Assembly: GCF_003018255.1 (NCBI RefSeq)
Contig: NZ_CP027440.1
Strand: one strand, 5' to 3'
Source of the DNA: Escherichia coli
GTDB lineage: Bacteria > Pseudomonadota > Gammaproteobacteria > Enterobacterales > Enterobacteriaceae
DNA length: 64,000 nt
Below the pieces are notes generated by a model that searched no databases, had not been told where the DNA came from, and was given only the letters and a program-made list of their open reading frames with translations. The first letter of the stretch is position 1. Every line of letters begins with the position of its first letter. A program made the position numbers and the translations under genes. Shown here in pieces: positions 32,457 through 35,225 of this stretch.

Positions 32457-32780
32457 CTACAGGCGGTGGCGATAATCGCTGGGAGTGCGATCAAACTGCC
32501 GACGGAAAACGCGGGAGAAGGTCTGCTGAGAGACATAACCCAGGTCCATTGCGATATCAAAAATCGGACGCTCGGTGGTGCGCAACTCAACGGCGGCCAG
32601 TAACAGGCGGCGTTGGCGAATGTAATCACCTAGTGTCTGATGCGTCACAGTACGGAACATCCGCTGTAAGTACCACTTTGAATAGCCTGATTTTTTTGCG
32701 ACGACATCAATGTTAAGCGGCTGGTCAATATGCTCGTCAATCCATGCGATAAGATCCTGAATAATTTTCTGATGGGACAT
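32457..32780 (-). CDS. soxS: AraC-family superoxide response activator SoxS
   Basis: 107 aa ORF recognised as SoxS. Confidence 0.95.
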   Translation of the reverse strand: MSHQKIIQDLIAWIDEHIDQPLNIDVVAKKSGYSKWYLQRMFRTVTHQTLGDYIRQRRLLLAAVELRTTERPIFDIAMDLGYVSQQTFSRVFRRQFDRTPSDYRHRL

Positions 32781-32865: not shown

Positions 32866-33330
32866 ATGGAAAAGAAATTACCCCGCATTAAAGCGCTGCT
32901 AACCCCCGGCGAAGTGGCAAAACGCAGCGGTGTGGCGGTATCGGCGCTGCATTTCTATGAAAGCAAAGGGTTGATTAGCAGTATCCGTAATAGTGGCAAT
33001 CAGCGGCGATATAAACGTGATGTGTTGCGATATGTCGCAATCATCAAAATTGCTCAGCGTATTGGCATTCCGCTGGCGACCATTCGTGAAGCATTTGGCG
33101 TGTTGCCCGAAGGGCATACATTAAGTGCGAAAGAGTGGAAACAGCTTTCGTCCCAATGGCGAGAAGAGTTGGATCGGCGCATTCATACCTTAGTGGCGCT
33201 GCGTGACGAGCTGGACGGATGTATTGGTTGTGGCTGCCTTTCGCGCAGTGATTGCCCATTGCGTAACCCGGGCGACCGCTTAGGAGAAGAAGGCACAGGC
33301 GCACGCTTGCTGGAAGATGAACAAAACTAA
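32866..33330 (+). CDS. soxR: MerR-family redox sensor SoxR ([2Fe-2S] cluster CIGCGC motif)
   Basis: 154 aa ORF recognised as SoxR. Confidence 0.95.
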
Positions 33331-33360
33331 AGCGCCACAAGGGCGCTTTAGTTTGTTTTC
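33329..33360. terminator. intrinsic terminator after soxR (AAAGCGCC-ACAA-GGGCGCTTT then T-rich)
   Basis: Inverted repeat overlapping soxR stop. Confidence 0.75.
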
Positions 33361-33470
33361 CGGTCTTTGTCTTTCTCTCTATCCCGCTGGTACACAGGAG
33401 GGTTTCCCCCGACGTCAACACACCTCATTCGAGCACGTGGTGGAGGTTCCGGTTGGTGTTGATGCTTTAA
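33330..33470 (-). ncRNA. possible RyjA-like small RNA locus (placement by synteny only)
   Basis: In K-12 as I recall, sRNA RyjA is encoded opposite to and just downstream of soxR; no sequence-level confirmation possible here. Confidence 0.3.
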
Positions 33471-33875
33471 TTGTATGTCACCGGCGTTTCTTCGCCAGTG
33501 TAAAAGTACACTTTTTAGCCGCAATATTTTTGTCATCTCAGACGATTTTTTATCGCAATCCTGAACGGTATACGGCTCGATAACGCTGCAATCTTGCGCA
33601 TCGACGATAACGTTTGCGCATCAATTGCCTGGTTTTTCATCGTCAAGACAATAAAAGAGAAAAAAGCAGCAAACTTCGGTTGAAAAAGCCGCTATGATCG
33701 CCGGATAATCGTTTGCTTTTTTTACCACCCGTTTTGTATGCGCGGAGCTAAACGTTTGCTTTTTTGCGACGCACCAATTTGTCGCAAACCTGGAGCAGGA
33801 AGATAACGTTTCGCTGGCAGGGGATTGTCCGCCACGCATCTTGACGAAAATTAAACTCTCAGGGGATGTTTTCTT

Positions 33876-35225
33876 ATGTCTACGCCATCAGCGCGTACCG
33901 GCGGTTCACTCGACGCCTGGTTTAAAATTTCACAACGTGGAAGCACTGTCCGTCAGGAAGTGGTTGCCGGGTTAACAACATTTCTGGCGATGGTCTACTC
34001 GGTTATCGTCGTTCCAGGCATGTTGGGTAAAGCAGGCTTCCCGCCTGCGGCAGTTTTCGTTGCGACCTGTCTGGTTGCCGGACTCGGTTCTATCGTGATG
34101 GGTCTGTGGGCTAATCTGCCGTTGGCGATTGGTTGCGCCATCTCCCTGACGGCGTTTACCGCATTCAGTCTGGTGCTGGGGCAACATATTAGCGTACCTG
34201 TCGCGCTGGGTGCCGTGTTCCTGATGGGTGTGCTGTTTACGGTCATTTCTGCCACGGGTATCCGTAGCTGGATTTTGCGCAACTTGCCGCACGGTGTGGC
34301 GCACGGCACGGGGATTGGTATCGGTCTGTTCCTGCTGCTGATTGCTGCTAATGGTGTCGGTCTGGTGATTAAAAACCCACTTGATGGTCTGCCCGTCGCG
34401 CTGGGGGATTTCACGACCTTTCCGGTGATGATGTCGTTGGTGGGGCTGGCAGTGATTATCGGCCTGGAAAAACTGAAAGTCCCTGGTGGCATTCTGCTGA
34501 CCATTATCGGTATCTCAATTGTCGGTTTGATCTTCGATCCTAACGTCCATTTCTCCGGCGTTTTCGCCATGCCTTCATTGAGCGATGAAAACGGCAATTC
34601 ACTAATTGGCAGCCTGGACATTATGGGCGCGCTGAATCCTGTAGTCCTGCCAAGCGTTCTGGCGCTGGTGATGACGGCAGTATTTGATGCCACCGGAACT
34701 ATCCGTGCCGTCGCCGGCCAGGCGAACCTGCTGGATAAAGATGGGCAGATCATCGACGGCGGGAAAGCACTGACCACTGACTCCATGAGCAGCGTTTTCT
34801 CTGGCCTGGTGGGTGCAGCTCCGGCAGCGGTATACATCGAGTCTGCGGCGGGTACGGCGGCGGGCGGTAAAACCGGTTTGACGGCTATCACCGTTGGCGT
34901 GCTGTTCCTGCTGATTCTGTTCCTCTCTCCGCTCTCTTACCTCGTTCCGGGGTATGCAACGGCTCCGGCGCTGATGTACGTTGGCCTGCTGATGCTGAGT
35001 AACGTGGCGAAAATCGACTTTGCTGATTTTGTTGATGCGATGGCGGGTCTGGTTACGGCGGTATTCATCGTGCTGACCTGTAACATCGTAACAGGCATCA
35101 TGATCGGCTTCGCGACTCTGGTGATTGGTCGTCTGGTTTCCGGCGAATGGCGCAAGTTGAACATCGGTACGGTCGTTATCGCTGTGGCGCTGGTGACCTT
35201 CTATGCGGGTGGCTGGGCTATCTAA
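33876..35225 (+). CDS. ghxP: guanine/hypoxanthine permease GhxP (NCS2 family)
   Basis: 449 aa polytopic membrane protein ORF recognised as YjcD/GhxP. Confidence 0.9.

Follow-up and report, generated by a model that had tools for sequence, protein, structure and literature searches.

Most pur operons are governed by one PurR box, which lies over the -35/-10 region; autoregulation of purR makes use of two operators located past the transcription start, and the operator of purB is found in the coding region, such sites acting as roadblocks. Here we analyse the region upstream of ghxP (yjcD), annotated in K-12 as the gene of the guanine/hypoxanthine transporter GhxP, within a stretch of 64,000 bp of the Escherichia coli contig NZ_CP027440.1 (assembly GCF_003018255.1), referred to below as the window. 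An earlier note, made from the letters of this DNA alone, had described five half-site-like direct repeats of a PurR-related motif in this region, and had considered another regulator possible. The best explanation, and in our judgement quite a probable one, is that ghxP is repressed by PurR bound to hypoxanthine or guanine, through three operators placed around one sigma-70 promoter, the fifth motif copy being a decayed operator which provides one strand of a leader RNA helix (P2), and the first a chance resemblance. The elements discussed below are, in order:

33579..33589, + strand: motif copy 1, GATAACGCTGC, an apparent chance resemblance, not part of the system; -3.5 bits
33594..33601, + strand: conserved element TTGCGCAT, directly 5' of box 1, with a second copy 20 bp on, at 33614-33621
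33604..33619, no strand assigned: PurR box 1, ACGATAACGTTTGCGC, from -112 to -97 relative to the predicted start; 18.5 bits; the published motif of a PurR binding peak
33680..33685, + strand: -35 hexamer TTGAAA, near-invariant, kept in Erwinia, Rahnella, Hafnia, Edwardsiella and Dickeya
33703..33718, no strand assigned: PurR box 2, GGATAATCGTTTGCTT, overlapping the -10 hexamer and the predicted start (-13 to +3); 10.3 bits in E. coli
33704..33709, + strand: -10 hexamer GATAAT, after an 18-bp spacer; predicted start near 33715-33717, at the head of a run of seven T
33746..33761, no strand assigned: PurR box 3, AGCTAAACGTTTGCTT, from +31 to +46, in the leader; 19.0 bits; its left part is the 5' strand of P2
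33800..33815, + strand: motif copy 5, AAGATAACGTTTCGCT, which forms the 3' strand of helix P2 and is best read as a decayed PurR operator
33858..33878, + strand: translation initiation region, CTCAGGGGATGTTTTCTTATG, almost unvarying over about 20 nt, outside the leader structure
33876..35225, + strand: ghxP (yjcD) coding sequence, an open reading frame (ORF) of 449 amino acids, the regulated gene

The ghxP boxes are built on the same 16-bp palindrome, with a central CG, as the operators of the pur regulon (purF, purL, purMN, purHD, purT and others): boxes 1 and 3 score within the validated range, the region is occupied in an adenine-dependent way and expression follows the PurR-1 iModulon. The arrangement is, however, different from that of the pur operons, since three boxes are conserved at ghxP (about -105, -5 and +38), that on the promoter matching the PurR motif least well. 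In the ghxP leader, the placement of box 3 is comparable to that of the purR and purB operators, as is that of the ancestral box where motif 5 lies; unlike these systems, ghxP also has a promoter-overlapping box and a far-upstream one at a fixed distance, and its leader boxes are arms of an RNA helix. As in lac (O1/O3) and gal (OE/OI, with HU), an auxiliary operator is found about 100 bp upstream of the promoter-proximal one, at a constrained distance, but the 99 bp of ghxP are not an obvious in-phase spacing, and PurR is not known to form tetramers or loops. The purine riboswitches of Firmicutes (pbuG, pbuX) are likewise structured 5' leaders preceding a guanine/hypoxanthine permease gene; the ghxP leader, in contrast, matches no purine-related sequence or structure in Rfam, and its architecture differs, in that a helix named P1 closes a long P2 carrying an internal hairpin, with a 3-bp helix, H3, in addition. 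Finally, the small RNA SraL/RyjA shares the soxR-ghxP spacer, and has given its name to the PurR binding peak, labelled ryjA/yjcD, but its transcription is directed away from ghxP, and 140 bp separate it from box 1; it is outside the motif cluster.

ghxP is an established PurR target, and three of the five copies had previously been noted, each singly. Chromatin immunoprecipitation on microarrays (ChIP-chip) revealed a PurR peak at ryjA/yjcD, with adenine only and a log2 ratio of 2.08, corresponding to positions 33229-33859 of the window; the motif reported for it, ACGATAACGTTTGCGC, coincides with box 1, at 33604-33619 (Cho et al. 2011, Table 1, PMC3159470). The gene was assigned to the PurR-1 iModulon, and the coordinate of box 1 found to carry a PurR motif, by Sastry et al. 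(2019, PMC6892915); the membership was restated by Rodionova et al. (2021), and purR-dependent repression by adenine was cited, and a 4-fold HAP repression reported, by Kozmin et al. (2013, PMC3809563). Box 3 is a known RegPrecise site, at -130 (supplement of PMC4576408), while motif 5 has been offered as a new predicted PurR site, at -76 (PMC4576408). The PurR link drawn in the earlier note was thus correct, and had already been shown experimentally, the ChIP data that it had suggested inspecting being a published peak which spans the interval; its description of half-sites fared less well, as detailed below. No joint treatment of the motif copies, nor any mention of box 2, was found in the papers searched. 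Three results are new here: a map that brings the operators together and shows a deeply conserved box merged with the -10 hexamer; the constant distance of 99 bp between boxes 1 and 2; and a leader RNA, supported by covariation, in which operator sequence provides a helix arm. As far as PurR is concerned little is added, the gain being a coherent map of operator copies and promoter.

The five strings of the earlier note are all present where it had placed them, on the + strand: GATAACGCTGC at 33579, GATAACGTTTGCGC at 33606, GATAATCGTTTGC at 33704, GCTAAACGTTTGC at 33747 and GATAACGTTTCGC at 33802. The motif is not enriched in the 64-kb window, where the 12-mer, with up to 2 mismatches, has 7 matches against 6.7 expected, and the 9-mer core, with up to 1 mismatch, 22 against 24. 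Clustering is, on the other hand, non-random: 3 of the 22 core matches (33609, 33708 and 33751) fall within 150 bp, all on the + strand.

Scores were obtained with a PurR weight matrix derived from the 27 published sites of Table 1 of Cho et al. (2011), ghxP omitted; the training sites themselves score between 12.1 and 25.4 bits (n = 27). A scan of this kind, also suggested in the earlier note, finds the two best matches of the whole window at box 3 (33746-33761; 19.0 bits, p = 2.7e-7), which ranks at the top, and at box 1 (33604-33619; 18.5 bits, p = 3.9e-7), the third best scoring 12.5 bits. Both are 16-bp imperfect palindromes of the ACGCAAACGTTTGCGT type, with a central CG, and fall within the range of validated sites. 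Box 2 (33703-33718) is borderline, at 10.3 to 13.4 bits, the lower figure being that of E. coli, for which 0.03 matches are expected by chance in the 413-bp spacer; motif 5 (33800-33815; 7.0 bits, 0.13 expected by chance) and motif 1 (33579; -3.5 bits, at random level) remain below the range. Copies 2 and 4 are therefore complete 16-bp palindromic boxes, the left halves of which had gone uncounted, copy 3 appears as a box fused to the -10 hexamer, and copies 5 and 1 are best explained by a decayed operator kept as an RNA helix strand and by chance, respectively. The original observation is in this sense partly confirmed, as three to four real elements and one chance match rather than five equivalent repeats.

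Conservation was evaluated in 80 ghxP loci from about 40 genera of Enterobacteriaceae, selected by scanning one genome per species, and in outgroup loci featuring ghxP-yjcE synteny in Erwinia, Yersinia, Serratia, Rahnella, Hafnia, Dickeya, Pectobacterium and Edwardsiella. Within E. coli, the soxR-ghxP interval was found in 5,420 of 5,426 complete genomes, and that of the window is 99% identical to K-12 MG1655, all five motif copies being unchanged. None of the 80 Enterobacteriaceae loci lacks box 1 or box 3, and box 2 is found in 79 of them. This conservation supports copies 2, 3 and 4 as candidate PurR boxes; copy 5 is supported as conserved without being a PurR box, and copy 1 has no support. 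Beyond the family, five further families or genera have boxes 2 and 3, or else a box where motif 5 lies. The GATAACG letters of motif 1 are not conserved, and the consensus of the other genera, AAAAATGTTGC, is without the central CG: its resemblance to the other copies would be accidental.

The only promoter-like site between 33200 and 34000 is TTGAAA-18-GATAAT, which agrees with the consensus at 10 of 12 positions. The string GATAATCGTTTG is identical in 79 of the 80 loci. Past the -10 hexamer, the half-site CGTTTGC is conserved to the same extent as the hexamer itself, GATAATCGTTTGCyT (33704-33718) forming one conserved block, and the score of box 2 rises to 13.4 bits where its first base is an A. 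Promoter and fused box 2 are kept in 6 of 8 outgroup loci (Erwinia, Yersinia, Serratia, Rahnella, Hafnia and Edwardsiella). Of the PurR boxes, that overlapping the promoter is the oldest and has the widest conservation. Second promoters, looked for by eye around box 1 and at TTGACG (33842), were discarded: none has an acceptable -10 hexamer and none is conserved.

The predicted start falls on GC followed by seven T (GCTTTTTTT at 33714-33723, GCCTTTTTT in most genera), and a similar T-run, GCTTTTTT, trails box 3. A T-run at the start of the transcript is a hallmark of UTP-sensitive reiterative transcription at codBA, upp and pyrBI. The possibility that the T-runs after boxes 2 and 3 belong to a terminator or attenuator was rejected, as no + strand terminator came out of the scan; by inspection, the box 3 palindrome can form only an interrupted stem of 4-5 bp.

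Box 1 is absent in Erwinia, Yersinia, Serratia, Hafnia and Edwardsiella, and missing from all the outgroup loci fetched, Rahnella alone having a weaker PurR-like upstream match, at a different position. Within the Enterobacteriaceae, the footprint anchored on box 1 without gaps consists, in order, of TTGCGCAT and box 1, an A-rich stretch, TTGAAA, the variable 18-bp spacer and GATAATCGTTTGCyT, TTGCGCAT being near-invariant in 79 species. The distance between boxes 1 and 2 is 99 bp in 79 of 80 species, and 100 bp in Mangrovibacter; the mean identity of the 83-bp linker between them is 62%, and 56% in its first 41 bp, next to box 1. The other spacings vary, from 26-30 up to 140 bp between boxes 2 and 3, and from 97 to 174 bp between box 3 and the ATG. 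The constancy of the 99-bp distance suggests that box 1 may act together with the promoter complex, and is the sole hint, provided by sequence comparison, towards cooperative binding. No factor site was recognised in the linker, and no convincing match to CRP, IHF, FNR, Nac or sigma-54 sites was seen by eye either there or at CTGGCAG. The string TTGCGCATC occurs twice, 20 bp apart, at 33594, just 5' of box 1, and at 33614, overlapping its right end; the upstream copy is conserved like box 1 over 79 species, but does not correspond to any PurR half-site having a central CG. An ORF of 35 codons on the - strand, which starts at 33640 and runs across box 1, was rejected because the region upstream of 33594 is not conserved.

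Box 3 scores from 15.8 to 21.4 bits in 79 of the 80 loci, and 11.6 bits in one Raoultella, and is present in most outgroup loci fetched. The position of motif 5 does not exceed 7 bits in E. coli and most Enterobacteriaceae, and is often below 0, but is occupied by strong PurR-like palindromes in Serratia (ACGTAAACGATTACGT, 17.9 bits), Yersinia (17.0 bits) and Edwardsiella (15.5 bits). Given this contrast, motif 5 is best read as a decayed operator, of which the PurR-like left half would have been lost in Enterobacteriaceae. Its complementarity to the left part of box 3 has been maintained, the pair 33748/33813 covarying between C-G and U-A. Although published as a predicted PurR site, motif 5 thus seems to be conserved for pairing, rather than for PurR, in most genera, which calls for caution in predicting transcription factor sites within leaders. 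In E. coli, a 22-codon ORF, MRGAKRLLFCDAPICRKPGAGR (33738-33806), runs through box 3 and the following hairpin, and ends at the TAA of motif 5; it is unlikely to be a gene, because its ATG, within P1, is replaced in many genera (GTAAGCG, GTCTGCG, GTATACG).

The pairing between box 3 and motif 5 is part of a larger leader RNA structure, composed as follows:

33736..33841, + strand: structured leader RNA domain of about 106 nt, with four helices, P1, P2, H1 and H3
33736-33745 with 33832-33841, + strand: P1, found by RNAalifold unaided; 7 of 9 pairs covary
33747-33756 with 33805-33814, + strand: P2, found by RNAalifold unaided, in which the left part of box 3 pairs with motif 5; 1 of 10 pairs covaries
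33764-33770 with 33781-33787, + strand: H1 hairpin, added to the RNAalifold model; 7 of 7 pairs covary
33822-33824 with 33828-33830, + strand: H3, found by RNAalifold unaided; weak

Compensatory changes are visible when the leaders are read side by side; they are strong, and extend over about 40 genera. In MAFFT alignments, which are blind to structure, 91-94% of the cells pair, against 32-46% with partners slid by 1-3 columns, and 14 pairs show changes on both sides, against 3-9 in the slid controls. Aligning 75 distinct sequences to a covariance model resulted in 16 double-change pairs and 157 such cells, and none of 500 shuffles reached the observed values. In a structure-blind scan for mutual information, ranks 1 and 2 are taken by P1 pairs, one H1 pair and the P2 pair 33748/33813 being also recovered; the latter is C-G in 22 sequences, U-A in 32 and U-G in 11. 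Pairing reaches 94.5% on the sense strand and 86.9% on the antisense one, with 174 G-U cells, an asymmetry which points to an RNA of ghxP sense. In 79 of 83 ghxP loci the covariance model has exactly one match, invariably on the + strand and just upstream of the start codon, and it has none elsewhere in the window or in the ghxQ/uacT region. In the paralog, ghxQ lies 35 bp after guaD, in an operon without leader, and has no match to the model; a ghxQ-like locus of Serratia is likewise negative.

The domain is located, on the sense strand, between the sole conserved promoter (33680-33709), with its predicted start site, and the start codon. We have high confidence that the structure is real. 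It corresponds to no described RNA family: in the window and in seven related loci, together representing eight genera, no match of the leader to Rfam 15 was found at E<=1, and no description of a leader RNA was found in papers mentioning ghxP or yjcD. A structure supported by covariation, and absent from Rfam, is uncommon in the 5' untranslated region (UTR) of a well-studied E. coli gene.

The strain of the window differs from K-12 at two positions within the domain, both in the H1 loop. This loop (33771-33780) is RCCCCUUUU in most genera, resembling the anti-Shine-Dalgarno end of 16S rRNA and complementing the AGGGG Shine-Dalgarno of ghxP; its C-run is lost in K-12 (GCAGCAAAUU) and in the window strain (GCACCAAUUU), while E. 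albertii and another E. coli keep GCCCC. The loop was rejected as a partner of the Shine-Dalgarno, or of the GGGAG stretch, the former being invariant also where the C-run is lost. Lineage-specific insertions fall between box 2 and P1 or in an unpaired stretch. Those just past the predicted start, of 45-130 bp, were seen in the loci which we numbered L030, L045, L048, L076, L035 and L043, and are all different; insertions internal to the leader occur in L064, L070 and L073-L075. Each lineage-specific insertion folds into strong hairpins, and Buttiauxella has an extra hairpin within the unpaired stretch of the leader domain.

These elements may be combined into a single circuit. Transcription from TTGAAA-18-GATAAT would start near 33716, with the three PurR operators distributed around the promoter. 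To judge from their positions, PurR at box 2 (-13 to +3) would compete with RNA polymerase, or keep it off the promoter, and PurR at box 3 (+31 to +46) would block elongation, while box 1 (-112 to -97) would represent a high-affinity site at a fixed distance from the promoter. The PurR co-repressors, guanine and hypoxanthine, are brought in by GhxP itself, so that the circuit would be a self-limiting negative feedback loop. Motif 5 would be the remnant of one more operator in the leader, which is still strong in Yersiniaceae and Hafniaceae; its complementarity to box 3 would persist because both palindrome copies, once transcribed, pair with each other to form helix P2 of the four-helix domain. 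In general terms, a palindromic operator duplicated inside a transcribed leader automatically makes a long-range RNA helix, which selection can keep after one of the two operators decays.

Several points weigh against this scheme. At 10.3 bits, box 2 lies under every published site of the matrix, the minimum being 12.1 bits, and its conservation could derive in part from promoter or initial-transcript constraints; similarly, the invariance of box 3 could be owed partly to the RNA, and not to PurR. Positions relative to +1 are predicted from consensus match and conservation. P2 has one clearly covarying pair only, and the covariance model finds no significant domain outside the Enterobacteriaceae: with filters off Erwinia alone appears, weakly (13-22 bits), and equivalents of P1 and P2 are seen, by eye and in minimum-energy folds, only in Yersinia and Erwinia. 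The resolution of ChIP-chip, about 630 bp, leaves occupancy unassignable to individual boxes, and a search of the literature yielded no PurR footprint. Moreover, yjcD is absent from the 23 genes called significantly purR- and adenine-dependent by Cho et al. (2011, PMC3159470), and the expression dependence of ghxP comes from studies other than theirs.

Three operators around one promoter are, nevertheless, preferred to other readings of the same copies. That these are five equivalent direct-repeat half-sites, bound cooperatively by PurR or by a different regulator recognising GATAACGTTTGC, might be suggested by their common + orientation, by their GATAA-like left flanks and by the occurrence of three perfect PurR right half-sites, of 13 bits each, within 150 bp. 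It is, however, very hard to reconcile with the data, and we regard it as highly improbable: copy 1 lacks both conservation and likeness to PurR sites, copies 2 and 4 reach, as whole palindromes, the scores of validated sites, the GATAA of copy 3 is the -10 hexamer, copy 5 departs from the motif in most genera, and the spacings between copies (27, 98, 43 and 55 bp) are irregular, two of them varying among species. The model of the earlier note fails on these same grounds, and nothing in the analysis calls for another regulator. PurR might alternatively act only via box 1, with box 2 conserved for promoter and start site, and box 3 for RNA helix P2; box 1 alone was indeed reported from the ChIP-chip peak and from the iModulon motif search, box 2 shares positions with the -10 hexamer, and box 3 contributes its left half to an RNA helix. 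We hold this to be unlikely, since box 3 outscores box 1, with an unpaired right half that fits the PurR consensus (TTGCTT being invariant), and a lone site at -105 would be badly placed for repression; furthermore, outside the Enterobacteriaceae, where box 1 is absent, boxes 2 and 3, or a box in place of motif 5, are still there, and with box 1 as the only operator those taxa would be left without any. A looped repression complex, finally, in which PurR dimers at boxes 1 and 2 interact directly or via a DNA-bending protein, trapping the promoter in a 99-bp loop, would resemble lac O3-O1 or the gal OE-OI repressosome. In its favour, the centres of the two boxes lie 99 bp apart in 79 of 80 species, even though mean identity is 56% in the first half of the linker and other parts of the region vary freely in length. 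On the other hand, box 1 is a recent addition, confined to Enterobacteriaceae, and the fixed length is in part that of the promoter and of the A-rich upstream element. PurR is a dimer without the LacI-type tetramerisation helix, and the two purR operators bind independently; LacI-type loops follow a periodicity of about 11 bp, with maxima near 92.5 and 103.5, so that 99 bp are nearly out of phase, and a loop of this type has, in our opinion, little probability.

Assigning a role to the leader RNA is more difficult. An expression platform was not found, as there is neither a terminator-like site on the + strand nor an alternative covarying pairing that sequesters the Shine-Dalgarno; the consensus fold leaves the latter free, the domain ending about 20 nt before it, and the sole nearby hairpin is invariable. 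The leader might be of the CsrA type, in which case CsrA would bind three motifs similar to CAG(G)GGA(U)UG, including one that covers the Shine-Dalgarno, and would set translation. Three conserved CAG..GGA..UG motifs are in fact present: the unpaired CACAGGGAGAUG (in E. coli GCAGGAAGAU, 33797-33806), GGCAGUGGAUUGU (33818-33830) and CUCAGGGGAUGU (33858-33869), in the Shine-Dalgarno region; they resemble the CAGGAUG repeat of CsrB, and the translation initiation region is invariant over about 20 nt. Yet the GGA of the middle motif is inside the predicted H3 stem, and the third motif is missing in Erwinia. In addition, ghxP is marked "No" for crosslinking-immunoprecipitation (CLIP-seq) peaks of CsrA in Supplementary Data 6 of Potts et al. 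(2017), where the gene was possibly poorly expressed in the medium used, and is given as "activated by CsrA", like other PurR-regulon transporters, an effect which looks indirect. CsrA control by this route appears accordingly to be improbable. A metabolite-sensing riboswitch, for instance for purines, would add a post-transcriptional layer atop PurR, on the model of the guanine riboswitch of Bacillus pbuG. In its favour, several covarying helices meet in a junction, and unpaired nucleotides are highly conserved, within the presumed 5' UTR of a purine permease gene; we consider it more improbable still, given the lack of an Rfam match in the eight genera searched, of a terminator and of any covarying pairing with the Shine-Dalgarno, the 20 nt or so separating the domain from the latter, the narrow distribution, and the fact that the E. 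coli leader alone folds no better than shuffled sequences (z = -0.53).

Ranked by rough odds, a structural or insulating element, affecting mRNA stability or translation, comes first, and is a reasonable possibility, short of an even chance; binding of CsrA or of another protein comes next, as a minor one, and sensing of a metabolite last, as a slight one, the remainder being unassigned. In a more ambitious and rather doubtful version, the 106-nt domain (33736-33841) could be an undescribed cis-regulatory RNA of the Enterobacteriaceae ghxP gene, which responds to a ligand or a protein and controls translation or mRNA fate independently of PurR, and which evolved from two palindromic PurR operator copies pairing as P2, the same DNA letters serving as operator and as RNA helix. 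Were the leader RNA regulatory, a second layer of control over purine-base uptake would be present.

Genes flanking the region are arranged in the order soxS (32457-32780, - strand), soxR (32866-33330, + strand) and ghxP (33876-35225, + strand). SraL/RyjA (Rfam RF01408, 153 bits) is found within the soxR-ghxP spacer, at 33323-33463 on the - strand, and the region assignable to ghxP is therefore limited to 33464-33875. This small RNA overlaps the final codons of soxR, with which it has in common a terminator hairpin with a 13-bp stem (33324-33354), which could act bidirectionally, and is kept beside soxR in Salmonella, Klebsiella, Kosakonia and Buttiauxella. Pairing of SraL with the ghxP leader was considered, and discarded, being no better than with shuffled sequence (90/300).

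A few minor observations concern the gene itself. In constitutively active cusS mutants of E. coli, ghxP is up-regulated together with cusR and cusC in minimal medium, a finding left unexplained by the authors (PMC10920338); no sequence similar to a CusR box was seen, by eye, in the region upstream of ghxP. In one Buttiauxella locus (L071, 3856-3979, - strand), the ghxP-yjcE interval contains a sub-threshold match to the Rfam family "Vibrio RNA AS5", of 46 bits (E = 4.8e-7), the gathering score being 96. Lastly, a 2.9-kb contig (JAEWQV010000038.1, our L002), assigned to the metagenome-assembled genome of a "Bacillota bacterium", encodes a GhxP 100% identical to the E. coli protein, preceded by three PurR boxes with the same positions and sequences as in the window, and is almost certainly E. 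coli contamination of that bin.

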